Assembly (NCBI GenBank): GCA_964454175.1
Contig: CAYVSA010000001.1
Span: forward strand, 9,993-73,992
DNA from: an uncultured Pseudomonadota bacterium
GTDB taxonomy: Bacteria > BMS3Abin14
Length of the DNA: 64,000 nucleotides
Reading direction: 5' to 3'
Shown: positions 2,957 to 59,814 of the stretch, piece after piece
How positions within the stretch are numbered: the first letter of the stretch is position 1
How the letters are laid out: each line of letters begins with the position of its first letter
The notes under the pieces: generated by a model
The model's database searches: none
Told to the model about the DNA's origin: nothing
What the model saw: the letters and a program-made list of their open reading frames with translations, nothing else
Position numbers and translations under genes: made by a program

Positions 2957-3973
2957 TCAGCCCCCAATATGGCTCATTGTCCTGGAACAGGGCGGCGCGA
3001 AACCAGCGCCGTTGATGTGATGCCCTTCCGGTTTGGTTACAAGGGCGGTCTTGATGGCACTTAGCACCGCCTGGTCGCTGCAGCCCTCTCTCATCAGGGA
3101 AAGAAGATCGGTTTCGGCGTCCGAAAAAAGGCAGGTCCTCAAAAAACCGTCTGAAGTGAGCCTCACCCGGTTACACTGCACGCAGAACTCAGATGATATG
3201 GGAGTTATGAATCCCAGAGTTCCCAGATGTCCGGGTACCTGGTACCTCTGGGCAGGTCCGGCCCCCCGGCCCTTCCCCAGGGAGATCAGGTCGTATTCCG
3301 TTTTGATCCTGGCTGCAGCCTCTTTAGCGGTAAATACCCTGTCCGCAGACCAGAACCCGTTTGCCCCCAGGGGCATGAACTCAATGAAACGAACTTCGTA
3401 CTCCTCGTCGCGAGTCATGGCAACAAAGTCCATGAGTTCATCGTCGTTAAAGCCCCTCATCAGCACCACGTTGATCTTCACAGGGGTAAGGCCGGCCTCA
3501 GAGGCTGTTCGAATGCCCTCAAGGACCCGTGAGAGTCTTATGGCGGTTCCTGGGTCGTTCCTGTGGGTAATCCACCCGAATCTGTCATCTTTGAGGGTGT
3601 CCAGGCTAACATTTACCCTGGATAGGCCAGCTGCCTTGAGGGATAAAGCTCTCTGGGCGAGGAGGGTGCCGTTTGTGGTGAGGCTGAGATCTGATATCCC
3701 CGGTAATTTTGCCAGTGACCCAACGAGGCGCTCCAGGTGTTTTCTCACTAGAGGCTCACCGCCGGTAATGCGGACGCTGGAAACCCCTCGTTCACCCAGG
3801 ACCGCTACTATTCGTTCGATCTCCTCGTAGGTCATTATCTGCCCGTGGGCCAGATCTACGAAGTTATCCGGCGGGATGCAGTAAAGGCATCTCAGGTTGC
3901 ACCGGTCTGTCACCGATACCCTGACGTACTTTATTGGTCTGTTAAAACTGTCTAGCAATCGTTCACTGGTCAT
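2957..3973 (-). CDS. moaA: GTP 3',8-cyclase MoaA (radical SAM, molybdenum cofactor biosynthesis)
   Basis: It has the 'CNLRCLYC' radical-SAM cluster motif and a MoaA-like C-terminal cluster (CVQCNRVRLTSDG). I place the start at the internal Met 'MTSERLL' (ATG at 3971-3973). The 49 in-frame upstream codons overlap a structured leader and are not called coding. Confidence 0.9.
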   Translation of the reverse strand: MTSERLLDSFNRPIKYVRVSVTDRCNLRCLYCIPPDNFVDLAHGQIMTYEEIERIVAVLGERGVSSVRITGGEPLVRKHLERLVGSLAKLPGISDLSLTTNGTLLAQRALSLKAAGLSRVNVSLDTLKDDRFGWITHRNDPGTAIRLSRVLEGIRTASEAGLTPVKINVVLMRGFNDDELMDFVAMTRDEEYEVRFIEFMPLGANGFWSADRVFTAKEAAARIKTEYDLISLGKGRGAGPAQRYQVPGHLGTLGFITPISSEFCVQCNRVRLTSDGFLRTCLFSDAETDLLSLMREGCSDQAVLSAIKTALVTKPEGHHINGAGFAPPCSRTMSHIGG

Positions 3974-4138
3974 AGAATACAAAAAGGCTCGCTTCTGGCG
4001 AGCCCGGCCGCATAAGGACCTCTCCTTTCCAAAAACGGGAGGCCCATCCGTTTCCAGATGAACCCGTCGGCCGCTGACCGTAGGCTTGTCCGTTAGGCGC
4101 GCGGCTCGGAGAGCATGCATGAACTTAACAGAAATACC
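3974..4138 (-). ncRNA. Candidate Moco (molybdenum cofactor) riboswitch in the moaA leader
   Basis: The minus-strand leader contains 'CUCUCCGAGCC', 'CCUACGG' and 'GGAAAGGAGAGG' elements reminiscent of the Moco RNA motif. A terminator expression platform sits immediately 5' of the moaA ATG. Moco riboswitches classically precede moaA. The motif is recalled from memory, not scanned. Confidence 0.35.
3976..4004 (-). terminator. Intrinsic terminator hairpin (GGCUCGC-cagaa-GCGAGCC + UUUUU), about 10 nt upstream of the moaA start
   Basis: A perfect 7-bp GC-rich stem (3986-4004 on +) is followed on the minus strand by a U5 tract. It lies between the MshEN gene and moaA, with no room for a promoter downstream of it. 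Confidence 0.6.
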
Positions 4139-5200
4139 CTACAGCATCAATATCTTGCTTTTCAGGATGAGTATCTCGAAGGCGATAGAGGCCTTTCGCA
4201 TTATCCGGACAAGAAACTCCAGGTCATCTTCTCCGGGTTCGTTTTTCCAGGAGAAACCTACGATCGCAGCCACCGTGCGTTTCCTGAGAACGAGGGGGCA
4301 GACTGTTATCTCCGCAGGCGGGGAGGAGGACAGGTTGGCCAGCCACGGGTTGGTGCTGTACAGGTCCTTGCCACTCCCCCTGAAAACACTCCTTGATTCC
4401 TGAATAAGGCTCAGGATGTTATGGGGCTCCAGATCGATCTTCCATGAACCGAAATCTCCTCCAGGCTTCACCTTGCCTCCGGACATCCAGCCCTGCGCCT
4501 GATTCCCCTTTAAAAGAAACATGAACACGTCGTCAAGGACCTGCAGGCTGCCGCTCACTACCGTGTGAGCCACATCGTTCCTGTTAGATATCTCCATGAA
4601 TGACCTGGTGATATCCTCCAGCATCGCGGCATCTTCTTCAAGGATATCGTGAGCTTCAAGATCGTGGATCTCTTCAGGTTCATCCCCGGTTTTTTTCACG
4701 CGTTTTGGCGTGTGTGATGGAACCGCGATATAACGGGCTTCACTTTTTATGTTGTAGTACCTGTCCAGTGCCTGTGTGATCCGCAGTTCGCTCGCCACCG
4801 CCGATTTGATCACACAGTCGGTCCTGAAAGAGACCTCGTCGACTACGTCCAGCCTGGTCGGGTCTCGCATGGCCAGGACGATACGTTTTCCTTCTTTTTT
4901 TAGAGGAATTATCCGGTGCTGTTCGATAAGATCCCTGGGGACGCAATCCAGTATGTTCTGGGTGATGTTTTCAAAGTGGTGTGCTTCTGCAAAGGGGACG
5001 TTGTGCTGCGAGGCAAGCTCTTTGAGGAGGGTTTCCTCATCCACGGCACCCATCTCCAGGAGATTTGTTCCAAGCCTCCCCCCAAAGATCACCTGTCTTT
5101 GAAGTGCCTCTTCCAGAATGTCCATGGTGATGATGCCATGGTCCAGAAGCAGACTACCCAGGTTCTTCTTCATCAGGTGTGTCCTCACCTTCATCGACAA
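4139..5200 (-). CDS. MshEN / T2SSE_N domain protein (putative c-di-GMP receptor) with an uncharacterised C-terminal domain
   Basis: The N-terminus carries two tandem MshEN c-di-GMP-binding motifs: 'KNLGSLLLDHGIITMDILEEALQRQ' and 'RLGTNLLEMGAVDEETLLKELASQ'. There is no ATPase domain. Confidence 0.55.
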   Translation of the reverse strand: MSMKVRTHLMKKNLGSLLLDHGIITMDILEEALQRQVIFGGRLGTNLLEMGAVDEETLLKELASQHNVPFAEAHHFENITQNILDCVPRDLIEQHRIIPLKKEGKRIVLAMRDPTRLDVVDEVSFRTDCVIKSAVASELRITQALDRYYNIKSEARYIAVPSHTPKRVKKTGDEPEEIHDLEAHDILEEDAAMLEDITRSFMEISNRNDVAHTVVSGSLQVLDDVFMFLLKGNQAQGWMSGGKVKPGGDFGSWKIDLEPHNILSLIQESRSVFRGSGKDLYSTNPWLANLSSSPPAEITVCPLVLRKRTVAAIVGFSWKNEPGEDDLEFLVRIMRKASIAFEILILKSKILML

Positions 5201-5921
5201 GAGGTTTGCGGCCGAAAACTTTGGCCACCTGCACGCTCACCTCGAAAAGGATGAGCAGCGGACCTGCCATCATCATTTGCGTTGCGATATCCGGCGGCGT
5301 CAAGGCCGCGGACAAAACAAATACGATGACGATGGCATAGCGCCTGTTTTTTGCCAGTGATTCATATGATAATAGACCGATCCTGGAAAAGAAATAGGAT
5401 ATAAGGGGCAGCTCAAACACCAGCCCGAAGGCAATAAGCAGCTTTGTGGCAAAGGTGAAATACTCCCTGACCGATGGAAAGGGGCGTATCCCCTCGTTGG
5501 CAAATCCCATGAAGAATTTGAAACCGAAAGGAAATACAACGAAGTAACCGAACATGGATCCTGTTACGAAAAAGATCGTGGAGAAAATTACGAAGGGAAT
5601 AACGACAGTTTTTTCTTTCTTGTACAGGCCCGGTGCTACAAAAGCCCAGAACTGGTAGAATATCACCGGCAGTGCGAGGAATATCCCGGCCAGCAGCGAC
5701 ACCTTCAGGTAGGTAAAAAACGCCTCGGCAACACCGGTAAAGATCATCCACGAGTTCTTCTCCGGCAGACTGGCCAGCAGGGGGATCGCTATTAACTCGA
5801 AGATACGGTCCTTGAAGGCGTAGCAGCCGAGAAACCCGACCCCGACCGCAATGACGCAGATAATGAGGCGCCGCCGCAGCTCTTCCAGATGGGAGGAGAA
5901 GGGAAGCCGTTGTTCAGACAT
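5154..5921 (-). CDS. tatC: Twin-arginine translocase subunit TatC
   Basis: It is polytopic with TatC-like 'SHLEELRRRL' and 'PGLYKKEK' motifs. I place the start at the internal Met (MSEQRLPF), which overlaps tatA by a few nt. Confidence 0.85.
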   Translation of the reverse strand: MSEQRLPFSSHLEELRRRLIICVIAVGVGFLGCYAFKDRIFELIAIPLLASLPEKNSWMIFTGVAEAFFTYLKVSLLAGIFLALPVIFYQFWAFVAPGLYKKEKTVVIPFVIFSTIFFVTGSMFGYFVVFPFGFKFFMGFANEGIRPFPSVREYFTFATKLLIAFGLVFELPLISYFFSRIGLLSYESLAKNRRYAIVIVFVLSAALTPPDIATQMMMAGPLLILFEVSVQVAKVFGRKPLVDEGEDTPDEEEPG

Positions 5922-6288
5922 CCCTGTCTTCGTCATCCGCTATGCCGCCCTCGATCTCTTCGGGTGAGTATGTGAGCTCAGGTTCTGTGTCAGGGTCGCT
6001 GGGAACGTCCCCGGCTGGCTTCAGGTCCGTCTGTTCGGTGGTAGTGTCGGAACCCTCCTGGTCCTGCTCGCCATCCGGGATGAGATGAGGGTATTTTTCG
6101 GCCAGATCCTTGCGGTGCTCCTTTTCAAGGTCTACCCTGACTGAATCCTGAAAGTCGTCCGTGGCCTTTTTAAACTCGGCAAGTCCTTTACCGAGATGCC
6201 TGGCAAGCTCGGGAAGGCGTTTGGGACCGATCACAATGAGAGCGACCACCAGGATAACCAGTATTTCGGGCATACCTATGCCGAACAT
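5914..6288 (-). CDS. tatA: Sec-independent translocase TatA/TatB family protein
   Basis: The N-terminus 'MFGIGMPEILVILVVALIVIGPKRLPELARHLGKGLAEFKKA' is the canonical TatA/B TM + amphipathic helix. It has an acidic C-terminal tail. Confidence 0.8.
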   Translation of the reverse strand: MFGIGMPEILVILVVALIVIGPKRLPELARHLGKGLAEFKKATDDFQDSVRVDLEKEHRKDLAEKYPHLIPDGEQDQEGSDTTTEQTDLKPAGDVPSDPDTEPELTYSPEEIEGGIADDEDRDV

Positions 6289-7538: not shown

Positions 7539-8018
7539 CTATTTAGCCCTGTACACTCCGCTCTTGCCGCCATCCTTGAAAGTCAGCCTGACGTTCTGAA
7601 TCCGCATGCCCTTGTCAACCGACTTCAGCATGTCGTAGATCGTGAGAGCAGAGACAGCTACTGCGGTGAGGGCCTCCATCTCCACGCCGGTCCTCCCTGT
7701 AGTGGATGCGGCTGCTTCTATCCTGATGCCGGGAAGAGATTCGTCCGGTTCAAGCTCAACCCTGAGTGAGTTCAACGGTATGGGGTGGGTAAGGGGTATC
7801 AGGTCAGATGTTTTTTTCCCGCCAGAAATTCCCGCGATACGGGCAGCAGCAAAGACATCTCCCTTCGGTACCTGACCGTCAAGGACCGACCTGAGAGTCT
7901 CGGGCAGGGTCACAACCTCACCACGGGCAATTGCAGTACGTCTTGTCTCGTCCTTGCCGCCGACATCCACCATTCGGGCCTGTCCAGAACCGTCCAGATG
8001 GGTGAGTTTGCGGCTCAA
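7539..8018 (-). CDS. moaC: Cyclic pyranopterin monophosphate synthase MoaC
   Basis: 'MVDVGGK...TRRTA' and '[20 protein letters not shown]' are the MoaC signature. Length is 159 aa. Confidence 0.9.
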
Positions 8019-8019
8019 T

Positions 8020-8388
8020 TTACTCTTCCTCAGAGAGAAACTCTGTTATGATGAGAAGGTCTTCATCGGCGACCTGATCGAATCGAATGCCGAGCCCGAA
8101 GTGACCGTTTTCGAGCTCTCTCTGGTGAATTATTGCCCCGCGTGCCTTGATTATATTATCCTGAATTCCAAGGGTAAGCTCGACTTCTCTGGCGGTGGAG
8201 GGGAGAGGGTTGGGGATCTCCAGCATGATGCCTCCCTCTGAGAGGTCGAGGGTCCGGCCGGCTGTTTCGAGGTCAACGTGCCCTTCCGGAGCGTAGTGTG
8301 AAAACGATACCAGGTTGACGGTCTCGAGACGCTTTAGCCTTGGTTTGAGCTCCTTTTTGGTCACTAACGAACCTCCTTGGTGAGCCAA
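8020..8388 (-). CDS. PilZ domain protein (c-di-GMP binding)
   Basis: It has the 'DLSEGGIML' (DxSxGG) motif and an upstream R-rich 'PRLKRLE' segment. Its start lies 1 bp from the moaC stop. Confidence 0.55.
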
Positions 8389-18677: not shown

Positions 18678-19322
18678 CTACTCGTTTGCAAGCTGGAATG
18701 CCAGACCCTCCAGGTCGATGGCAAAATCAACATTTCTCAGTATCGTTCCTGGCGGTACCTTGAGGGTAGCCGGAGTAAAGTTAAGTATGCCTTTTATGCC
18801 TGCATCAACAAGTTGATGGGCAACCTGGAAGGCGTTTTCCGGGTTTACCGCGATTATTCCTATCCTGATGCCCAACTCTTCCACAACGCGCCTCATCTTG
18901 TCCATGGAAAAGAGGGGGATATCCTTGAATGAACCCATCTCAACGAGTATGGGATCCTGCTCGAATATCGCCGCAATTTCAAATCCTCTCTTGGCCAGGG
19001 AATCGGTTCCGAGGAGTGCGAATCCCAGGTTTCCTGCTCCCACCAGAGCACAGCTCCAGGATCTGTCTATGCCGAGGGCCCTCTTGATATCCTCCTGAAG
19101 GTTCTCCACGTAGTACCCTACACCCCTGACCCCGAACTCGCCGAAATATGCAAAATCCTTCCTGATCTGAGCCGGGTTGGTCCCGCATTTTCGGGCAATG
19201 TCAGAGGAGGAAATGATCCTCTGTCCCGACTTCTGAACCTCCTCAAGGCACCTGTCGTAAAGGGAGAGGCGCCTTATAGTCGCTTCCGGGATCTTAACCC
19301 TGCTGACTTTTCTAAATACCAT
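18678..19322 (-). CDS. rex: Redox-sensing transcriptional repressor Rex
   Basis: The N-terminal wHTH 'IPEATIRRLSLYDRCLE' and the Rossmann NADH-binding 'ALVGAGNLGFAL' are present. Length is 214 aa. It overlaps the upstream cytochrome gene's end by 11 bp. Confidence 0.85.
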   Translation of the reverse strand: MVFRKVSRVKIPEATIRRLSLYDRCLEEVQKSGQRIISSSDIARKCGTNPAQIRKDFAYFGEFGVRGVGYYVENLQEDIKRALGIDRSWSCALVGAGNLGFALLGTDSLAKRGFEIAAIFEQDPILVEMGSFKDIPLFSMDKMRRVVEELGIRIGIIAVNPENAFQVAHQLVDAGIKGILNFTPATLKVPPGTILRNVDFAIDLEGLAFQLANE

Positions 19323-20676
19323 TTCTCACCTGCCTTGTAAGTTGCATAGCATTATCCAGGTCACTGCTGACTTTTTCCAGCACTTTCATAGTATAGCTGT
19401 AATTGTGGACCGGCACTCCGGCTTCGACAAAGGAGAGGTCGTTCCTGCTTTCAGACAGAAGCCTGCTGGCTTCATCCTTTCGATCTGATTGCGCCATGGA
19501 GGAGATGCCGGTATCGGCACTGCGAATCCTGGCCCGCACCGCGGCTATGGTTCTTGCCAGTTCATCACTCCAGGAAAGGAGCAGGTCCCCGCGACCAGTC
19601 TCATGGCAAAGTTCGCACCTTTTGCCGTCGGCCCTCATGCCGGGTTTGGCGGAATCGGTGCCGGACCCCTCCCTGGCGGCAGGTCCGTGACATGCCACGC
19701 ATTCTACTCCAGCGAGATACATTGGGGATGGTTCGGGCTCTACACCGGATATCCCTTCTCCGCCGTATAGCGACATGATGGCCCTGTGCCCGCCGCCATG
19801 ACAGAGGACGCAGCCGTTTTCAAGAACGACTCTCTGCTCCGGAAGCTGATGGCGTATAACGCTGTGGCATTCGCTGCACTCTACCTTGTGATCGGTTACG
19901 TGGCGTCTGTGAATGGTCTCGACGGATTCAGATGCTGTGACTTTGCCTGTCCTGCTGTGGCAGTCGGCGCAGTTCTCGTACAGGACATCGCCGCTTCCCT
20001 GGACAATGTCCAGGTGGCAGTAGCGGCAGTCTACTGATCTTTCCATAAAATCGGTGTGATCCAGCTTTCCGCCGGCATATTCCACAGGGTTTTCCGGCGG
20101 AGTGTGGCAAAGGGTACACGTGGCGGTGGGGGGATTGTTCTCGAACCCTTTGAAATGGCAAATAAAGCAGGCGCTTTCAGCAACGGTCATGTGATCTCCC
20201 ATGGCGATATGGGAGTGACACGTGGTACAGCGCAGTATCTTGCCACGGCTTAATTTCTGCATGTGGGGTTTGTGATCGAAAATAACGCCTTCCTTGTAAA
20301 CGACCTGACCCTCCAGCAGCCTGCCGGAATGGCATTCTGTCTGCAGGCAGTTAGCGTCCAGGACCTCTGCCCTGGTTCTTTCGCCATATGTGCGGGTGAA
20401 ATAGCTGCCGAGCTGCATAAAAGCGCGGAACCTGGGCATCAGGTGGCCGTCCTCATCAGGCCGGGTGTGGCACTGGACGCAGGGTACATTGTTGTGAGTC
20501 GATCCCTTCCAGTCTTGGTAATAGTGCTTCATGACGTGGCAGGTGTTGCCGCAAAATACCGCGGTTTCAGTCACCTTCAGAGTTGCCCACGTTGAGAAGA
20601 ACAGCAGCGCCAGGACAATGAGAAGAACTTCATAGAAGCGAAGCTTCCCGAGAAATTTAACTCCCCTCTCTTTCAT
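19312..20676 (-). CDS. NapC/NirT/NrfH-like membrane-anchored multiheme cytochrome c (about 12 CxxCH)
   Basis: There is an N-terminal TM helix, then 'CGNTCH' plus at least 10 further CxxCH motifs, including a CxxxCH variant. It is the last cytochrome gene of the operon. Confidence 0.8.
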   Translation of the reverse strand: MKERGVKFLGKLRFYEVLLIVLALLFFSTWATLKVTETAVFCGNTCHVMKHYYQDWKGSTHNNVPCVQCHTRPDEDGHLMPRFRAFMQLGSYFTRTYGERTRAEVLDANCLQTECHSGRLLEGQVVYKEGVIFDHKPHMQKLSRGKILRCTTCHSHIAMGDHMTVAESACFICHFKGFENNPPTATCTLCHTPPENPVEYAGGKLDHTDFMERSVDCRYCHLDIVQGSGDVLYENCADCHSRTGKVTASESVETIHRRHVTDHKVECSECHSVIRHQLPEQRVVLENGCVLCHGGGHRAIMSLYGGEGISGVEPEPSPMYLAGVECVACHGPAAREGSGTDSAKPGMRADGKRCELCHETGRGDLLLSWSDELARTIAAVRARIRSADTGISSMAQSDRKDEASRLLSESRNDLSFVEAGVPVHNYSYTMKVLEKVSSDLDNAMQLTRQVRNGI

Positions 20677-20880
20677 GACTGCCCTCTGACCGGGTCTTTA
20701 CAGGCTGGAATCTCGCTGTATAACAGGCCCGGTAAAGTCGAGATTGTGAATAACCCGACAGTTTGAGAAGATTAGCACAGGTCACCTTTGGTGTCAATTA
20801 ACATGCGGGTTTCACTAACATCGTGCCAGCAATATTAACCCCATACAGGCAAAGTTTAAGATACATCTGGGTACAAGTCC

Positions 20881-21750
20881 TCATCGGATCTCCATGAGGG
20901 CAGAGTAGATGATAAAGAGGACCATGGTCAGCCCGAGACCATAGGCCGCAAAACCTGCGATCCGTGACCAGATAACGGTGGTTCGGGTTGGCGGATCTGT
21001 TGTCAGATCTTCCAGTTTGCCCGCTTCAACAAGCCTTCTGTACTCTGCGGGTCTTTCGTGGACCAGTTCTTCCTCGGTTATCCTGCCCGTGAAGATGACA
21101 TTGTCCAGGGGGAACTTCTCGGGGCGAAGGTGGGTATTGAAAAAATGTACCGTGAATATGAAGCCTGCCGCCAGCAGTGCCTCATCGGAATGCAATATAA
21201 TAGAGACGTTAAAAGCCCAGCCAGGAAGGAACTTTGAGAAGAACTCCGGGAACCATAGAGTCAGCCCTGAAAAACCGATTATCCCGACACCCCAGAAGAC
21301 AGCGAGGTAGTCAAATTTCTCCCAGTATGTGAACCTGTCAAAATCAGGCCTGCTGCCCTTGCCGAGGAACCACCTGAAATGCCCGATGATATCTTCAAGA
21401 TCTTTTTTCCAGGGCATCATGGAATTAGGCCCTGTCAGGAAGGCAAAGAAGGGCTCCTCCCGAAGGCAGACAATATAATAGGCTGCCCATGCGAGGTGCA
21501 GCGTGAAGTAAACGAATGTAATGAAGCCGCAGACGCGGTGGATATAACCTGCAGTCTGGATGCCGCCCAGAAAAAGCGCAAAGGTCCTGGCCCAGGCAGC
21601 CTCACTGTACTTTAAGGGCATGCCGGTCAGGACCAGACCCATGAAACTGATGATTATCAGGGCGTGCAGAAATCGGTGGTAGTATTGGAACCGGAGGTAG
21701 TAAATGGGGTTTTTCTCCCCGTTCCGGAGGTCGTTTGCATAATTTATCAT
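20881..21750 (-). CDS. Membrane b-type cytochrome (Ni/Fe-hydrogenase or formate dehydrogenase gamma / PhsC-like di-haem b subunit)
   Basis: It has 5-6 TM helices with conserved His pairs in the TM segments (HRFLHAL, IHRV, HLAW, HFFNTH). It is flanked by the two multiheme c genes. Confidence 0.55.
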   Translation of the reverse strand: MINYANDLRNGEKNPIYYLRFQYYHRFLHALIIISFMGLVLTGMPLKYSEAAWARTFALFLGGIQTAGYIHRVCGFITFVYFTLHLAWAAYYIVCLREEPFFAFLTGPNSMMPWKKDLEDIIGHFRWFLGKGSRPDFDRFTYWEKFDYLAVFWGVGIIGFSGLTLWFPEFFSKFLPGWAFNVSIILHSDEALLAAGFIFTVHFFNTHLRPEKFPLDNVIFTGRITEEELVHERPAEYRRLVEAGKLEDLTTDPPTRTTVIWSRIAGFAAYGLGLTMVLFIIYSALMEIR

Positions 21751-21770
21751 TTCGTCCTCCCGCCTGTATT

Positions 21771-22967
21771 TCAGTTCAAATTATCTTTTTTCCTCTCTTC
21801 GATGTGCCCCCTCACCAGCCACAGTGCTGTGTGGATACCGAAGAATATGAATACCCCGGAGAGCAGGAGCACCATTGCCAGGTAGAGGTAATAGAGTCCG
21901 GGATAATTTTCCTTGTCGTGGTAATCGGCATGCGGAAGGTATTTGACGAAGTTGGCGTTGGCCCCAGGGTGGCAAACCCCGCAGGTTTTGACCAGGTTGC
22001 CGGGATGGACCATTGATTCATTGTCATCCCTTGGCAGGATGTTGTGAGCTCCGTGGCAGTCTGGACATTGGGCGGCTTTCGAATACCCCATGCCCGTCAC
22101 CTGCCCGTGGTAGGTGTTCTTGAAGGTGTCACTCTCCTTTTCGTGACAGCCTGAGCACCGCCTGGTCACTGTAAGCATAAAATCCTTGTCCATGGCACGG
22201 TCTACCTTGTGAGCACCGTGACAGGAGATACAGGTTGGTGCCTCCTGGCTGCCCTCGGTGAACGCACTGCCATGGACACTGGAATTGTAAACGTTCACTA
22301 TGCCGGCGTGGCACGAACTGCAGGTGGTATTGATCCTGTTTCTGTGGGTCATTGCCCTCTCATCGTCTGCGGAATAGATGTTGTGGCTGCCGTGGCAGTC
22401 ATTGCATACGGCCGAAAAGATCATGCCGCTCCTGAAAAGAACGATGCCGTGCATGCCCTCCTCGAAATCGGAGCACACGTCAGATCTGAGAGCAGGATGT
22501 CTTTCGAGGATCTCAGGGCTGTCGTGACAGGTGCAGCATGTTGCCGGCAAGTTCAGCTCATAGGCTCTGGATTGGACGTTGCTGGTTGGCAAAATGTCGT
22601 GCTTGCCGTGGCAGCTGGAGCAGACCGGCAGGTCCGTCCGGGTCCGCGCATTCCCTGGCGAGTGGTCGCTTACCCTGAATTTGGCGACCATGTCGTCATG
22701 GCAGCGGCCGCAGTCTACAGCTTCCACTTCCTCATCGTGTTCATCTTCAGCGTCTTCCAGTTGAACATGACAGTCTGTACAGTCCAGGTCCCCGTGTATC
22801 GATCGGGAGAAGACATCCTCATCTATAAACAGAGAAAGCTCCTCCCCATCTACTTCTTTTGTGAGTGTGTCATCAGAATGACAGTCGAAGCAATCTGAGG
22901 TGGTCAGGGCCTGGGCCGGAGCGTAAAGAAGAAGTATGGCCACCGACAGAATAAACGCATATCTCAT
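21771..22967 (-). CDS. Periplasmic multiheme cytochrome c (11 CxxCH) with a C-terminal TM anchor
   Basis: It has a Sec signal peptide and 11 CxxCH motifs, and ends in 'LYYLYLAMVLLLSGVFIFFGIHTALWLV'. It is the first gene of the operon. Confidence 0.8.
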   Translation of the reverse strand: MRYAFILSVAILLLYAPAQALTTSDCFDCHSDDTLTKEVDGEELSLFIDEDVFSRSIHGDLDCTDCHVQLEDAEDEHDEEVEAVDCGRCHDDMVAKFRVSDHSPGNARTRTDLPVCSSCHGKHDILPTSNVQSRAYELNLPATCCTCHDSPEILERHPALRSDVCSDFEEGMHGIVLFRSGMIFSAVCNDCHGSHNIYSADDERAMTHRNRINTTCSSCHAGIVNVYNSSVHGSAFTEGSQEAPTCISCHGAHKVDRAMDKDFMLTVTRRCSGCHEKESDTFKNTYHGQVTGMGYSKAAQCPDCHGAHNILPRDDNESMVHPGNLVKTCGVCHPGANANFVKYLPHADYHDKENYPGLYYLYLAMVLLLSGVFIFFGIHTALWLVRGHIEERKKDNLN

Positions 22968-27509: not shown

Positions 27510-28016
27510 ATGACTGTAGGTTGGAATAGACAGAATTTCTCAGGGGACAGCCCCGGAGAACACCCCGCTGTAAAGGCCATCGAAGAGAATTTCCCCGCGG
27601 CATTCATTGAGTCCGGATCCTTCAGGGGTGAAGTGTGGGCGGTAGTAAAACCTGAAAAATGCAGAGCTGTCCTGCACTTCCTGGCAGAGGAGCCATCGCT
27701 CTCCTTTAATTACCTGTCCGACCTGACGGCCGTACACGAACCCCGCAAAGACGAACAATTCGAAATAGTATACCAGGTGTATTCCCTGTCAAGGCACTCC
27801 CGCTTCAGGGTCAAAACAAGGCTCGAAGAGGGCATGGAGGCCGACAGCGTTGTCTCCATCTGGCAGGGCGCTAACTGGCTCGAGAGGGAAGTTTACGATA
27901 ATTTCGGTGTAGTTTTTTCCGGTCATCCCGACCTGAGGAGGATCATGAATCCTGAAGGTTTCGACGGCCACCCTCTGAGGAAAGATTTTCCCGTCGGCGG
28001 ACGGGTGAAATGGTGA
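27510..28016 (+). CDS. nuoC: NADH-quinone oxidoreductase subunit C
   Basis: It has a NuoC/30-kDa fold: 'YQVYSLSRHSRFRVK...ANWLEREVYDNFGVVFSGHPDLRRI'. Confidence 0.9.
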   Translation: MTVGWNRQNFSGDSPGEHPAVKAIEENFPAAFIESGSFRGEVWAVVKPEKCRAVLHFLAEEPSLSFNYLSDLTAVHEPRKDEQFEIVYQVYSLSRHSRFRVKTRLEEGMEADSVVSIWQGANWLEREVYDNFGVVFSGHPDLRRIMNPEGFDGHPLRKDFPVGGRVKW

Positions 28017-28025
28017 GGTAGGATC

Positions 28026-29198
28026 TTGGCAAGACAGGAGATAATGACCATTAATATGGGTCCCCACCACCCCTCGACCCACGGGGTGCTCAGGGTGATC
28101 CTTGAGCTGGACGGTGAGACGGTGATAAATGCCGTGCCGGATATCGGCTATCTCCACCGGGGCATAGAAAAACTCGCCGAGCACAAGAAATACATCCAGG
28201 TCCTGCCGCTCACCGACAGGCTGGATTACCTCGCTTCTGGTACGAACAACCTCGCCTATATCCTGGCAGTGGAAAAGCTGCTGGGTCTCGAAGCCCCCAG
28301 ACGGGCCAGGTACATCAGAACCATATTCGCCGAGCTGACGAGGATCGGGAGCCATCTTCTCTGGCTGGGTACTCACGCCGCCGACATCGGAGCCATGACT
28401 GTGCTCCTTTACGGCATGAGAGAGCGGGAGGACGTCCTGGACATCATCGAGGAAACAGCGGGTACACGCCTCATGATGACGTACTTCAGGCCAGGCGGAG
28501 TCGTGAGGGATCTCCCTCCCGGCTTTGACAAGAAGATAAAGAGCTTCCTGAAAACATTCCCCGCAAGGATCGACGAATATGAAAGGCTTCTGACGAAGAA
28601 CAGGATATGGCTCCAGAGGACTGTGGGCATCGGTACGATAAGCCGGGATGAAGCCGTATCCCTGGGGCTTTCGGGTCCGGCTCTGCGCGGTTCGGGAGTG
28701 GACTGGGATATCAGGCGTGACGAGCCTTACGAGGCCTATGATGAGATCGAGTTCGACGTCCCCGTTTATGAGGGCGGCGATGTCTATTCCAGGTATCTGG
28801 CCAGAATAGGTGAACTCAGGCAGAGCGTGCGAATGCTTCTTCAACTCGTGGAAGGCCTGCCCGAAGGGCCATATATCGAAAGGACCGCCAAGTACGTACT
28901 CCCTGCCAAAGAAAGGCTGGACAGCTCCATGGAGGCCATGATCCACCACTTCAAGCTCGTTGTTGAGGGTATGACCCCCCCTGTGGGCGAAGTGTACTCC
29001 ACAATAGAATCTCCCAAGGGTGAGATCGGGTTCTACATCGTGAGCGATGGCAAGCCGCATCCGTACAGGCTCAGGATCAGGCCGCCGTCTTTCGTAAACC
29101 TCCAGTCCCTGTTAACCATGGCAAAGGGGAACATGATTGCTGATGTTGTAGCAATTATCGGAAGTCTTGACATAGTTCTTGGGGAAATTGATCGGTAG
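28026..29198 (+). CDS. nuoD: NADH-quinone oxidoreductase subunit D
   Basis: 'MTINMGPHHPSTHGVLR' matches the 49-kDa subunit. Confidence 0.95.
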   Translation: MARQEIMTINMGPHHPSTHGVLRVILELDGETVINAVPDIGYLHRGIEKLAEHKKYIQVLPLTDRLDYLASGTNNLAYILAVEKLLGLEAPRRARYIRTIFAELTRIGSHLLWLGTHAADIGAMTVLLYGMREREDVLDIIEETAGTRLMMTYFRPGGVVRDLPPGFDKKIKSFLKTFPARIDEYERLLTKNRIWLQRTVGIGTISRDEAVSLGLSGPALRGSGVDWDIRRDEPYEAYDEIEFDVPVYEGGDVYSRYLARIGELRQSVRMLLQLVEGLPEGPYIERTAKYVLPAKERLDSSMEAMIHHFKLVVEGMTPPVGEVYSTIESPKGEIGFYIVSDGKPHPYRLRIRPPSFVNLQSLLTMAKGNMIADVVAIIGSLDIVLGEIDR

Positions 29199-29684: not shown

Positions 29685-30980
29685 ATGACTAAGATCCTGA
29701 CCCGAAACATAGACCGGCCCAACCCGGCGAATATTGACTCGTACCTCTACAACGAGGGTTACCAGGCGCTTCCCATGGCACTGAATGATATGATGCCTGA
29801 AGATGTGATCGATGAGGTAAAGGCCTCCCGCATCAGGGGCCGCGGCGGTGCCGGGTTCCCGGCAGGCATGAAGTGGGATTTTGCCTCCAGGGACCCAAGG
29901 GGGCCCAAGAACATTATTGCCAACGCCGATGAGGGTGAGCCCGGGACGTTCAAGGACAGGGTGCTCATCGAAAAAGATCCCCACGCTCTCCTGGAGGGCA
30001 TGGCCATAGCGGGCTACGCTGTCGGCGCTGAGTTGGGATTTGTCTACATACGGGGGGAATACCCGGAAGGCGCCAGAATACTTGAAAAGGCCATCGCTGA
30101 TGCAGAGGCCAGGTCGTTCCTTGGCAAAAACATCCTGAACTCGGGGTTCGATTTCACCATAACAGTTCACAGGGGTGCAGGTGCCTACATCTGTGGGGAG
30201 GAAACCGCCCTTATCGAGTCACTGGAGGGCAAGAGAGGCCAATCAAGGATCCGGCCGCCTTTCCCGGTGAACGTCGGCTACATGAATCTGCCAACAGTAG
30301 TTAACAACGTTGAGACCCTTGCTAATATCCCTCAGATCATTCTCAGGGGCGGTGAGTGGTATGCCGGGTTCGGAACCCGGGAGTGTACAGGCACCAAGCT
30401 CTACTCGATAAGCGGTAAGGTGGCCAGGCCCGGGGTATACGAATTGCCCATGGGGACCACACTCAGAGATCTGATATTCGAGCACTGCGGCGGGATGAAG
30501 GACGGCAGGAGCTTCAAGGCCGCATTCCCGGGCGGTGCTTCCAGCGCCTGTCTTGACGAGACCGGGCTCGATGTCCAGCTGGACTTCAACTCCCTCGCGG
30601 CAGCTGGCAGTATGCTGGGTTCAGGGGCCGTCATGGTCCTCGATGATTCGGACGATATGGTCAAGGCTGTTCATGTCCTCATCAAGTTTTTCGAGCACGA
30701 GTCGTGCGGTAAATGCACTCCCTGCAGGGAGGGGCTGTTCTGGATAAGGCAGATATTGGACAGGATCCTCGCAGGGGGAGGGACCGAGAGCGACCTGGAA
30801 CTTCTTCTGAACATAAGCGAAAATATTGCGTCCACTTCATTTTGCGGCCTTGGAGAAGCTTCGGTAAGCGCTCTGGTCAGCACTATTAAAAAGTTCAGGA
30901 GCGAATTTCTGGCTTACATAAACTCTCCTGAGGAAAAAGCCGAAGAAACATCGGCATCGGGGCAGGAGCAGGCATCGTGA
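29685..30980 (+). CDS. nuoF: NADH-quinone oxidoreductase subunit F (FMN/NADH-binding, 4Fe-4S)
   Basis: 'GRGGAGFPAGMKW', 'ESCGKCTPCREG' and 'CGLG' are present. Confidence 0.95.
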   Translation: MTKILTRNIDRPNPANIDSYLYNEGYQALPMALNDMMPEDVIDEVKASRIRGRGGAGFPAGMKWDFASRDPRGPKNIIANADEGEPGTFKDRVLIEKDPHALLEGMAIAGYAVGAELGFVYIRGEYPEGARILEKAIADAEARSFLGKNILNSGFDFTITVHRGAGAYICGEETALIESLEGKRGQSRIRPPFPVNVGYMNLPTVVNNVETLANIPQIILRGGEWYAGFGTRECTGTKLYSISGKVARPGVYELPMGTTLRDLIFEHCGGMKDGRSFKAAFPGGASSACLDETGLDVQLDFNSLAAAGSMLGSGAVMVLDDSDDMVKAVHVLIKFFEHESCGKCTPCREGLFWIRQILDRILAGGGTESDLELLLNISENIASTSFCGLGEASVSALVSTIKKFRSEFLAYINSPEEKAEETSASGQEQAS

Positions 30981-33652
30981 TGGTCAAGATCGAAATTGAC
31001 GGCCGTCAAGTTACTGTTAACGGCCACATCACCGTGCTGGAGGCTGCGAGCAAGCTCGGTATCTACATACCGACCTTCTGCCACCATCCAAGGCTCTCGG
31101 AGCTCGGCGCCTGCAGGATGTGCCTCGTGGAAGTGGAGGGCATGGGTAAACTGCAGACGGCCTGTACGCTTGCAGTTGCAGAGGGAATGGTGATCAGGAC
31201 CAGCACTGACAGGGTGGAAAAATCCCGCCGCGCCATGCTCGAATTCCTGTTGATCAACCATCCACTGGAATGCACTGTGTGCGACGCTTCGGGAGAATGC
31301 ACCCTCCAGGACTTCGCTTTCAAGTTCGGCAGCGCCGAGACGAGGTTCACCGAGAAAAAGAGGGTATTGCGCGACCATATCATAAGCCCCCTCATCGACA
31401 GGAATCTGAACAGGTGCATCCAGTGCAAGCGGTGCGTTAGAATTTGTGACGAAGTTCAGGGCGTCACTGCCCTGGGTATGTCCTACCGCGGGGCAAAGAC
31501 TGTGGTGGGGCCATTTATGGAAAAATCACTGGACTGCGAATACTGCGGCCACTGCATATGGGCCTGCCCGGTGGGTGCCATCACTTCGCGGGTTATGAGA
31601 CACAAGATCCGCACGTGGGAGATGGACAAGGCTGAGGCTATATGCGCGTTCTGCAGCTGCGGCTGCACGCTCACATACAATCACAGGGACAACAGGGTCT
31701 ACAAGGTCACCCACGCTGACGGCAGGGGTGTTAATCAGGGCAGTCTCTGCTCGAGGGGTTATTTCGGATATGATGTGATAAACAGCCCGGAAAGGCTAAC
31801 GACACCACTTGTCCGAAAAGATGGTGAACTGGTTCAGGCAACATGGGAGGAGGCCCTTGAGACCGTTGCATCCGCGCTGGGCAAAGCTGCCGGTGAGGGC
31901 GGTGAAAACGCGGTGGGAGGCATCGTATCAGCTCGGCTTACAAACGAGGAACTATATCTGTTTCAGAAGCTGATGAGATCCTGCCTGTCCAGCAACTGTG
32001 TTGATGTGACCACCGGAGAGTGGAACAGAACAGTCCTTCCAGTACTTGAGGAAAGGCTGGGTGTCTTTGCTGCCACCAACTCCTTAGACGAGGTCACCTA
32101 TGCTGACTCCCTCATCATAATCGGCTGCGACATTACGGTGGAAAACCCCATAACTGGTATAAAGGTGAAGTCGGCCATCCACAGAGGGGGGTCGGTTTCC
32201 GAGATCAACCCCAGGAAAACAGCCCTGTCCCGCATGACAAAGAGGACCATGCTGGTTAGGCCCGGCAACGAACTTACCCTGGTTAAGGGCTTGATCAGGG
32301 CGGTCTTTGACGAGGATCTGATCAGCCAGGAGGACGGGAGCACCTGCAGCAACCTGGATGAACTCAGGCTGTCGGTATTAGACCAGGACCTGAAGTCGAT
32401 CTCCGATGAAACAGGAGTGTCTCAGGAAGACATCACAGGCCTTGCCAGGGAGTTCATGGGGGCGCGCAGGGCGTCCATAATATTCGGTGAGTCTGCTGTC
32501 ATGACTGAGCAGGGTCCGGCTCTTATCAATGCACTTATCGACCTGCTCATGCTCACCGGGAAATTGGGTCAGGAGGGTTTCGGCCTGTATCCCGTAAACG
32601 GTACAGCCAATTTTCAGGGAGCAGTGGACATGGGGGTCGCGCCGGCTCACCTGCCTGGCCACGCCCCCCTTGCTGTAAAGGGCTCGGCTAAAATGCTGGC
32701 CGACGCATGGAAGTCCTCTATCCCGGAAGGCCAGGGTCTTTCGGCTCCACAGATGCTTAAGGCTGCAGTGGAAGGTTCCCTGAAAACGCTCTATGTAGTG
32801 GGTGTAGACATAACCGGTTCTTTCCCCGACAGTTCGATCGCAGAAAAGGCCCTGTCTAACCTGGATTTCCTTGTTGTGCAGGACCTTTTCCTCACGGATA
32901 CAGCAAGGGCGGCAGATGTTGTTCTGCCCGCTGGCAGCCTGGCTGAAAAAAACGGCACCCTTACCAACGTGGAAAGGCGAATCCAGAGAACACGCAGGGC
33001 CATCGACGGGCTGGGGAAGTCCATGCCTGACTGGAGGATCTTTTCTGAACTCGGCGTAGCCCTGGGCCATATGGAAATGAAATATGTGAATGCTGCAGAG
33101 GTGCTGGACGAGATCGCGCAGACCGTGCCCTACTACTCCGGCATCAACCATCGAATACTGGCAGATAATGGGCTCCAGTGGCCCTTCACCCAGGATGACG
33201 CCAGGGAAGTTTACCATGAAGGTTATCTCGGGACCCGCCACCTCCTTTCAGGAGGAGTCGCTGACAGTCTCAGGTCATTTGCAGCCGTGAAATCCTGGGG
33301 CAAAGTGCCAGCGAACGCCGATTATCCCTATACCCTGGTCACAGGAGATCTCCTGTCCCATTCGGGCACCTTCACGCGCTACTCTGAATCGTTGAACAAG
33401 ATAGACTCTGAAGGTGCTGTCGTTATGAATCCGGAAACCGGGGCCAGCCTGGGCATAGATGATGGAGGAAAAGCCAGGGTTGTTTCGGCCCATGGTGAAC
33501 TAACTGTAAAGACCATTTATTCAGAAGACCTCATGGAGGATATTTTCTTCCTTCCGAAACATTTTGCCGACGTACCTGCAGGCAGGTTGATGAGTGCGTC
33601 GGGAAACGGCAGCGAGACTGCTGTTGTGCAGGTACGCGTGGAAAGAGCGTGA
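30977..33652 (+). CDS. nuoG: NADH-quinone oxidoreductase subunit G (long form, Mo-free molybdopterin-oxidoreductase fold)
   Basis: The N-terminal 2Fe-2S 'CHHPRLSELGACRMC', the clusters 'HPLECTVCDASGEC' and 'CIQCKRCVRICDE', and 'CAFCSCGCT' are present. There is no Cys/Sec or His at the FDH active-site position. Confidence 0.9.
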   Translation: MMVKIEIDGRQVTVNGHITVLEAASKLGIYIPTFCHHPRLSELGACRMCLVEVEGMGKLQTACTLAVAEGMVIRTSTDRVEKSRRAMLEFLLINHPLECTVCDASGECTLQDFAFKFGSAETRFTEKKRVLRDHIISPLIDRNLNRCIQCKRCVRICDEVQGVTALGMSYRGAKTVVGPFMEKSLDCEYCGHCIWACPVGAITSRVMRHKIRTWEMDKAEAICAFCSCGCTLTYNHRDNRVYKVTHADGRGVNQGSLCSRGYFGYDVINSPERLTTPLVRKDGELVQATWEEALETVASALGKAAGEGGENAVGGIVSARLTNEELYLFQKLMRSCLSSNCVDVTTGEWNRTVLPVLEERLGVFAATNSLDEVTYADSLIIIGCDITVENPITGIKVKSAIHRGGSVSEINPRKTALSRMTKRTMLVRPGNELTLVKGLIRAVFDEDLISQEDGSTCSNLDELRLSVLDQDLKSISDETGVSQEDITGLAREFMGARRASIIFGESAVMTEQGPALINALIDLLMLTGKLGQEGFGLYPVNGTANFQGAVDMGVAPAHLPGHAPLAVKGSAKMLADAWKSSIPEGQGLSAPQMLKAAVEGSLKTLYVVGVDITGSFPDSSIAEKALSNLDFLVVQDLFLTDTARAADVVLPAGSLAEKNGTLTNVERRIQRTRRAIDGLGKSMPDWRIFSELGVALGHMEMKYVNAAEVLDEIAQTVPYYSGINHRILADNGLQWPFTQDDAREVYHEGYLGTRHLLSGGVADSLRSFAAVKSWGKVPANADYPYTLVTGDLLSHSGTFTRYSESLNKIDSEGAVVMNPETGASLGIDDGGKARVVSAHGELTVKTIYSEDLMEDIFFLPKHFADVPAGRLMSASGNGSETAVVQVRVERA

Positions 33653-37765: not shown

Positions 37766-37813
37766 CGGGAGCAGCCTGCGTTAAAGCAGTTAATGAGGAG
37801 TAGGGAAAAGAGC

Positions 37814-59570: not shown

Positions 59571-59814
59571 CGTAAACTCCTTTCAATAATAGTGCTCTAT
59601 ACGCTGATTTTAACAGGTTTCGAGTAAAGAATATCCAAAGATACGTCGCCCGACATTGATATACCTCAAACAGAACATTGTTTTTGACCAGTGTGTTTTT
59701 GGTTGTTGATTCGAGAGGAAAGGGAAAATGACACTTTTCGTTTTCCGAGGAGTAAAAAGCCACTCATGGACTTTTTACGACACTATCAAAGTTATATATT
59801 GAAGGTTAACGGAC

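Follow-up and report, generated by a model that had tools for sequence, protein, structure and literature searches.

The 165-nt leader of moaA in the window—the whole 64-kb stretch of DNA that was analysed—carries an aptamer of the Moco/Tuco riboswitch family RF01055, lacking the helix P3 and followed by an intrinsic terminator hairpin. That the leader is a genuine member of this family is close to certain; the element is an ordinary, Rfam-detectable member of a class described in 2008, occurring here in a previously unsampled lineage. It probably acts on moaA by transcription termination, a reading to which, judging from the folding models and the relatives, a probability of about 0.8 may be given. 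Most likely, moaA would be shut off by an early end of transcription when the cofactor is plentiful, a direction that we infer. The features of the locus are as follows:

4139-5200, minus strand: MshEN-domain gene (c-di-GMP-binding type; Pfam PF05157), its stop lying 15 nt before the Rfam match
4122-4150, minus strand: candidate promoter read from the sequence, TTGATG (4150-4145), 17-nt spacer, TAAGTT (4127-4122)
4006-4123, minus strand: Moco/Tuco riboswitch aptamer in its P3-less form (RF01055 match), the structure being kept in relatives with compensatory changes
4108-4113, minus strand: P1 5' strand CUCUCC, pairing with GGAGAG 4025-4020 (cmscan alignment, pair list); the conserved CGAGCC core 4108-4103 comes next and overlaps it
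4070-4105, minus strand: P2 helix with the CCUAAC/CUACGG internal loop, similar to a GAAA-tetraloop receptor (cmscan alignment)
4040-4065, minus strand: P4 hairpin of 11 bp with the GAAA tetraloop 4054-4051 (cmscan alignment, RNAalifold, covariation)
4029-4039, minus strand: P5 mini-hairpin CC-CGUUUUU-GG (cmscan alignment; invariant in relatives)
4020-4025, minus strand: P1 3' strand GGAGAG, Shine-Dalgarno-like (cmscan alignment, pair list)
4088-4112, minus strand: predicted antiterminator 5' strand, composed of the P1 5' strand, junction and P2 5' strand of the aptamer
3994-4019, minus strand: predicted antiterminator 3' strand, pairing with 4112-4088 over 21 bp, including GGCUCG 4004-3999 with CGAGCC 4108-4103
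3981-4005, minus strand: intrinsic terminator, stem-loop GGGCUCGC-CAGAA-GCGAGCCU (4005-3985) plus U5 (3985-3981)
3963-4013, minus strand: speculative 16-codon uORF (MRPGSPEASLFVFYDQ, then stop), its ATG 5 nt after GGAGAGG and its stop 8 nt past the moaA ATG
2957-3973, minus strand: moaA (GTP 3',8-cyclase, 338 aa; Radical_SAM and Mob_synth_C domains; TIGR02666), the regulated gene

Identification of the aptamer

As read from the sequence, the leader spans positions 4138-3974 of the minus strand, from the TAG (4141-4139) that ends the MshEN-domain ORF to the moaA ATG (3973-3971). The original prediction had proposed a Moco RNA motif upstream of moaA because of a leader of this length with several elements—CUCUCCGAGCC (4113-4103), CCUACGG (4085-4079) and GGAAAGGAGAGG (4030-4019), all on the minus strand—and a hairpin with U5, every one of which is found in place. 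The search with RF01055 that it suggested was run and bears the motif out: with cmscan and Rfam 15, the reverse complement gives a match at 4123-4006 with 63.5 bits (E 6.1e-13), well above the gathering score of 36 bits and spanning the full model (positions 1-135 of 135, not truncated), so that the signal of the leader and its hairpin is not due to chance. This is the sole Rfam match above the gathering score in the whole window, and a permissive scan (E ≤ 1) of the same 64 kb yielded nothing beyond RF01055.

The core sequences CUCCGAGCC (P1/J1-2), CCUCCC and GGAAAGGAG (closing P5/P1) are present with posterior probabilities near 1, all three being invariant across the window sequence and the relatives L001, L004 and L006. 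The P4 tetraloop reads GGAAAC at 4055-4050, and P2 bears the bulge formed by CCUAAC (4096-4091) and CUACGG (4084-4079), the assignment of which as receptor-like was read from the sequence and modelled on Regulski et al. 2008 (PMC2408646). The helix P3 is missing—model positions 59-73 are deleted, with GCCG-AC-GGG alone joining P2 to P4. When folded from the start of the aptamer, the full-length RNA gives at minimum free energy (MFE) the helices P1, P2 and P4 as well as the terminator, P5 being extended by one pair relative to the Rfam model. The MFE structure obtained with the upstream coding sequence included (4140-3960) does not reproduce the aptamer, which is not counted against the riboswitch because the Rfam structure is recovered when folding begins at the aptamer. 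It should also be mentioned that a pattern scan returned a second terminator-like site at 4065-4040 on the minus strand, an 11-bp stem followed by CCCGUUUUUG; it was rejected, since in the Rfam alignment it corresponds to the aptamer's own P4 followed by the P5 loop.

Conservation among relatives

Relatives were looked for in a collection of 185,579 species genomes as well as in the JGI metagenomes. There, the closest MoaA proteins, all of them from uncultured bacteria, share only 60-66% identity, and no relatives nearer than the best one of 66% were found for a fine-scale covariation analysis of the platform. L001, L004, L006 and L008 share the gene order tatB-tatC-MshEN-moaA with a convergent gene after it. 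Matches to RF01055 of 50-77 bits, all of them P3-less, lie upstream of moaA in five relatives with enough upstream DNA, P3 being absent from the aptamers of L001, L004, L006, L007 and L008; the element in the window sits in the 5' leader of a cofactor-synthesis gene as it does in the aptamer-bearing relatives. More broadly, within the group of 50-66% MoaA identity, all loci with enough upstream DNA have a P3-less aptamer before moaA, with the exception of L081 and L084, which carry a deletion of it.

A custom covariance model, built from the window sequence and those of L001, L004 and L006, detected 12 aptamers among the first 81 sources, to which the metagenome loci added another 14. Among 11 distinct relatives, 94.3% of the cells are paired and 17 of the 30 pairs have changed on both sides, values to be read with the caveat that the alignment had been fitted to the model; in the controls, none of 500 shuffles reaches the observed level, and slid partners pair in only 25-50%. 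Double changes affect all six pairs of P1 (helix 1) and five pairs of P4 (helix 6), P5 (helix 7) being invariant. RNAalifold applied to a plain MAFFT alignment also recovered P1, P2 and P4, the last of these with compensatory changes. Judged from these sequence comparisons, the aptamer is real, conserved and under structural selection.

The two exceptions represent a natural deletion of the aptamer that keeps the terminator. In L081 (1140-1251) and L084 (830-950), corresponding to window positions 4145-3975 and with MoaA 66% identical, the ~105-nt aptamer is gone and the MshEN stop abuts a remnant of the P1 3' strand, (G/A)GAGAGGTCC, and the hairpin. The latter is intact in L084, with U7, and decayed in L081, where the moaA ATG follows immediately.

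Another element met in moaA leaders of relatives is a repeat of ~85 nt with two hairpins, GGAARNGRAAAYGACRYTTTTCRCTTYCC and then GGAGTAAAAAGCC-N6-GGACTTTTTRCGAC, for which no Rfam match was obtained. The unit occurs once or twice between the terminator and moaA in L001-L003 and L082-L085—six of these loci display the strict pattern of its first hairpin, L001 only at a second site—and the window has a copy in an intergenic position at 59708-59790 on the plus strand. It folds at -23 kcal/mol (z -1.7) and is highly similar in nucleotides across loci whose MoaA proteins share only ~66% identity.

Terminator and expression platform

The hairpin at 4005-3985 consists, according to the terminator scan, of eight pairs, six of them G-C; it folds alone at -14.0 kcal/mol and has a pair probability of ~0.9 in the full-length ensemble. 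The U5 run ends at 3981 and only 7 nt (GUAUUCU) separate it from the moaA ATG at 3973, close to the ~10 nt estimated originally. Two further expectations, that a terminator with no room for a downstream promoter implies regulated read-through and that mutually exclusive terminator and antiterminator folds should exist, agree with this gap and with the alternative pairing into which the aptamer can enter: the predicted antiterminator 3' strand combines the 3' flank of P1 with the 5' arm of the terminator, and folding of the window sequence gives both structures, with the following energies:

Full length from the aptamer start, MFE structure (aptamer and terminator): -58.6 kcal/mol
Full length, antiterminator forced: -57.0 kcal/mol
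Cut before the terminator 3' arm, MFE structure (antiterminator): -50.8 kcal/mol
Cut before the terminator 3' arm, aptamer fold with P1 forced: -47.4 kcal/mol

In the transcript cut before the terminator 3' arm, the antiterminator has a pair probability of ~0.8 and P1 one below 0.01. The energies look like those of a kinetically controlled OFF switch, the kinetics being presumed from the model. The antiterminator duplex of the window sequence (-26.0 kcal/mol) compares with -19.7 ± 3.3 kcal/mol for shuffled sequences, 37 of 1000 being as good or better; for L001 and L006, the corresponding counts of equal or better shuffles are 33 and 154 of 1000, respectively, and no such pairing better than shuffles was obtained in L007 and L008. 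The pairing would therefore be specific to the subgroup of the window sequence, L001 and L006. Within this subgroup, the terminator 5' arm GGCUCGCC is constant and the 3' arm varies (GCGAGCC, GCGGGCC and CGGGCCC, respectively), which fits a 5' arm with two partners. In the cut transcript of L001, however, the aptamer fold (-50.4 kcal/mol) is more stable than the forced antiterminator (-46.2 kcal/mol). For the specific antiterminator pairing predicted from these models, the chances thus seem to us evenly balanced.

Hairpins follow the aptamer in the relatives as well:

L001: AGGCUCGCCAAAAGCGGGCC followed by U6
L006: GGGCUCGCCAAAAACGGGCCC followed by GGUUUCUUUC
L007: AAAAAAUGGGCC...GGCCCAUUUUUU

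Directly behind the aptamer, L082, L083 and L085 (L001 type) and L087, L089, L090, L093, L095 and L096 (L007 type) also have a hairpin with a U-run. Since the distance from aptamer to moaA varies, from 33 nt in the window to ~270 nt in L006, while the hairpin stays next to the aptamer, it is tied to the aptamer rather than to the start of the gene. A different arrangement, a translational design with the ribosome-binding site (RBS) in P1, is seen in L004 and L086, where the moaA start codon lies 7 nt after the P1 sequence GGAGAGG. Both platform types, RBS-in-P1 and terminator, have been described in the family, together with an OFF logic (PMC2408646).

According to the mechanism proposed here, transcripts would either originate from a promoter that overlaps the MshEN gene at its end or be read in from the tat-MshEN genes, because the Rfam match begins only 15 nt after the MshEN stop. 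The candidate promoter would start the RNA at ~4116-4114, just before P1, and a likewise arranged TTGATG-17-TAGATT is found in L001, L082, L083 and L085. It is a weak match, missed by the consensus scan because its -10 hexamer agrees in only three of six positions. The only site returned by that scan, a sigma-70-like one at 4227-4200 (9/12), was rejected as no better than chance, 1.6 such sites being expected. Once transcribed, the aptamer (4113-4020) would fold into P1, P2, P4 and P5. With the cofactor bound, its 5' half would be held in P1 and P2, so that the hairpin 4005-3985 with U5 could form and RNA polymerase would terminate 7 nt before the moaA ATG. With the cofactor scarce, the segment 4019-3994 would invade and pair with 4112-4088; this antiterminator would take the terminator 5' arm (GGCUCG) away from its 3' partner, and the polymerase would read into moaA.

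Alternative modes of control

The hairpin may be asked to do more than serve the riboswitch. As an alternative to regulated read-through, the original prediction had considered that it might simply be the terminator of the MshEN gene, and one part of this stands: the hairpin 4005-3981 is the only terminator available to the upstream tat-MshEN genes and, with only 15 nt between the MshEN stop and the Rfam match, it must also end their transcripts. What does not hold is the exclusivity, a shared terminator being compatible with a riboswitch. In the stricter version, the hairpin and U5 would be a constitutive tatB-tatC-MshEN terminator, the aptamer would be a relic or act by another route, and moaA would be expressed by read-through or from an unrecognised promoter. 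Besides the crowding just mentioned, this version can draw on L084, which still has a hairpin and U-run right after the MshEN stop; the hairpin can therefore persist without the aptamer. A constitutive terminator would, however, silence moaA in the window, the 7 nt left before the ATG giving no room for a promoter, and the full conservation and covariation of the aptamer oppose its being a relic. Moreover, an alternative pairing with the aptamer is predicted, and in relatives of the L007 type the hairpin follows an aptamer whose upstream neighbour is a promoter-like, AT-rich spacer of 40 nt and not the end of an MshEN gene. Constitutive termination is thus regarded as very improbable, and regulated termination by the riboswitch is preferred.

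It could also be considered that the aptamer is real and the control mainly or additionally translational, with P1 hiding GGAGAGG (4025-4019) as the Shine-Dalgarno sequence of the uORF and moaA, having none of its own, being translated by termination-reinitiation. The uORF has its ATG at 4013, 5 nt after that motif, 16 open codons across the hairpin and a TGA at 3963, 8 nt beyond the moaA ATG, the 20 nt before which contain no purine-rich motif, whereas about two thirds of the window genes are preceded by one; several other window genes, however, also lack a visible Shine-Dalgarno sequence. The relatives speak in both directions. L004 and L086 have the start codon of moaA itself at the position 7 nt after GGAGAGG, in the classic design where P1 sequesters the RBS, and in L007 a 27-codon uORF begins at the same position, its TGA overlapping the GTG start of moaA (GTGA). 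In the closest relatives, on the other hand, the uORF is not conserved: in the L001 group, a GTG frame of 12 codons ends 163 nt before moaA, and the short frames abutting moaA in L001, L083 and L085 lie in the repeat element and do not occur in L002 and L084. A conserved, moaA-coupled uORF was rejected on this ground, not being kept in L001-L003 and L082-L085 apart from the repeat-element frames, and the frame in the window was demoted to speculative. Its peptide exhibits no conservation, its AUG is itself paired in the antiterminator fold, and by a rough estimate (not computed) such a uORF would arise by chance in a few percent of cases. Translational control of this kind therefore appears unlikely. 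A slightly more doubtful extension would be a double control exerted via one helix, with the formation of P1 both releasing the terminator and hiding the Shine-Dalgarno sequence of the uORF, whose translation across the hairpin would deliver ribosomes to moaA. If true, an RBS-in-P1 design of the kind seen in L004 and L086 would be ancestral and would have turned into a terminator design with the old start codon kept as that of a coupling uORF.

Nature of the ligand

Concerning the ligand, the original prediction of a Moco riboswitch holds with respect to the RF01055 family and has to be qualified with respect to the metal: the aptamer is of the P3-less form, tied in the literature to the tungsten cofactor, Tuco (PMC2408646, PMC11725836). 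In the comparative study of Regulski et al. 2008 (PMC2408646), P3 was missing from 58 of 176 RNAs, and this form was proposed as the sensor of the tungsten cofactor; tungsten-metabolism genes were found in 17 of the 19 organisms having such RNAs, which almost exclusively precede genes of MPT synthesis or tungsten enzymes. In E. limosum, P3-less RF01055 RNAs with terminator platforms are treated as Tuco riboswitches, the genes being up when W is limiting (PMC11725836). The ligand is unstable, and even with the RNA of E. coli no direct binding was demonstrated (PMC2408646); a literature search for a solved structure or a ligand-binding study of the Moco riboswitch returned nothing relevant.

From this background, and with the missing P3 as its only ground, Tuco appears somewhat more probable as the ligand than not. 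No tungsten genes (tup, wtp, AOR) were found among the window ORFs scanned against Pfam and NCBIfam, and no molybdate transporter genes were seen in the 64-kb window; since no tungsten-specific gene occurs in these 64 kb, the missing helix is all that the Tuco assignment draws on. The same architecture and mechanism with Moco as the ligand, or with an RNA that does not discriminate between Mo and W, is possible, if clearly less probable. In its favour is that the 64 kb contain no gene for a tungstate transporter or an aldehyde:ferredoxin oxidoreductase, that the only cofactor-using candidate nearby—a formate-dehydrogenase-like subunit—could use either metal, and that the product of moaA is a precursor that both cofactors share. 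In addition, the P3 rule is a correlation (17/19 organisms) to which its authors note exceptions, and deletion of P3 in the E. coli RNA left the specificity unswitched (PMC2408646). Against it, every clade member is without P3, and both the published comparisons and the transcript data from E. limosum tie P3-less RNAs to tungsten metabolism (PMC2408646, PMC11725836). All in all, the element seems to fit the E. limosum Tuco description, Tuco being the expectation based on the literature and Moco a possible ligand.

The missing P3 may thus be taken as a hint that the organism uses tungsten enzymes, possibly the formate-dehydrogenase-like module in the nuo operon. This complex I operon (26572-49035, plus strand), the nuoG of which (30977-33652) passes TIGR01973, has an insert after nuoG that encodes a cNMP-binding protein, a second NuoE, a fusion of NuoF with a GltD-like pyridine-nucleotide oxidoreductase (1027 aa), the formate-dehydrogenase-alpha-like subunit and a TPR protein, before nuoH-N follow. 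The formate-dehydrogenase-alpha-like protein (37793-40597, 934 aa) scores 661.9 bits, just below the TIGR01591 cutoff of 666.25, and has its own NuoE/NuoF-like partners inside the operon. A 423-aa ORF on the minus strand (27789-29060), without a family match, is a shadow frame over the plus-strand genes nuoC (27510-28016) and nuoD (28026-29198). Elsewhere in the window, on the minus strand at 18678-22967, the gene for a Rex-type redox regulator adjoins two multihaem cytochrome genes (c7/c3-type, 454 and 398 aa); these suggest an anaerobic or metal-respiring lifestyle of the host.

moaA and its genomic context

MoaA passes the equivalog TIGR02666 with 367.8 bits, the cutoff being 284, in a match that begins at residue 6 of the form starting at ATG 3973. 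The ORF caller had chosen ATG 4120, in frame and 49 codons upstream, a start lying on top of the aptamer; the tblastn matches of the relatives begin at residues 1 to 6 of the short form, and their in-frame upstream extensions (0, 1, 24, 28 and 42 codons) have unrelated lengths. The 49-codon N-terminal extension is thus an artefact of ORF calling, as had been suspected. Because the next gene after moaA, encoding a DUF362/ferredoxin protein, is convergent, moaA is apparently monocistronic. The same strand carries, upstream of moaA, tatA/B (5914-6288), tatC (5154-5936) and then the MshEN-domain gene. As to the other gene of cPMP synthesis, an equivalog-level moaC (7539-8018) is located directly behind a small PilZ-domain gene (window 7539-8388, minus strand), so that moaA and moaC both adjoin genes for proteins of the c-di-GMP-binding type, MshEN-domain and PilZ, respectively; the Rfam scan of the 64 kb gave no riboswitch at moaC.

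For the annotation, the value of the element is that the moaA start is fixed at 3973, the spurious extension is removed and the strong hairpin before the gene is explained. For pterin synthesis in this uncultured lineage, it also points to moaA, not to moaC, as the step under feedback control. To riboswitch biology, it adds nothing new.

Relationship to described riboswitches

Compared with the P3-less subclass of RF01055 (PMC2408646), the window element shares the full covariance-model match, the helices P1, P2, P4 and P5 with the CUCCGAGCC and GGAAAGGAG cores, the GAAA tetraloop of P4 and the lack of P3; it likewise precedes a gene of MPT synthesis and continues into an intrinsic terminator, one of the two platforms described. 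Nothing structural sets it apart. It differs in its host, which is uncultured and has a MoaA at most 66% identical to those in the collections searched, and in its position 15 nt behind the stop of the upstream gene instead of in a roomy intergenic region.

With the Moco riboswitch of the E. coli moaABCDE operon it has in common the family, moaA as the first regulated gene and, presumably, the OFF logic. The E. coli element, however, possesses P3 and is translational, with the moaA ribosome-binding site in P1, whereas in the window P3 is absent and the terminator sits between P1 and the start codon; it is the clade relatives L004 and L086 that use the E. coli-like RBS-in-P1 design.

The 'Tuco' riboswitches of E. 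limosum at focA and fetABC1 (PMC11725836) resemble the window element in having a P3-less aptamer, a hairpin with poly-U after it and a proposed alternative pairing that involves a complementary region overlapping with a conserved helix of the aptamer's 5' part. They control transporters and not moaA, and their transcript levels are up under W limitation. Their host is a Firmicute with documented tungstoenzymes, whereas the element described here is one known from its sequence.
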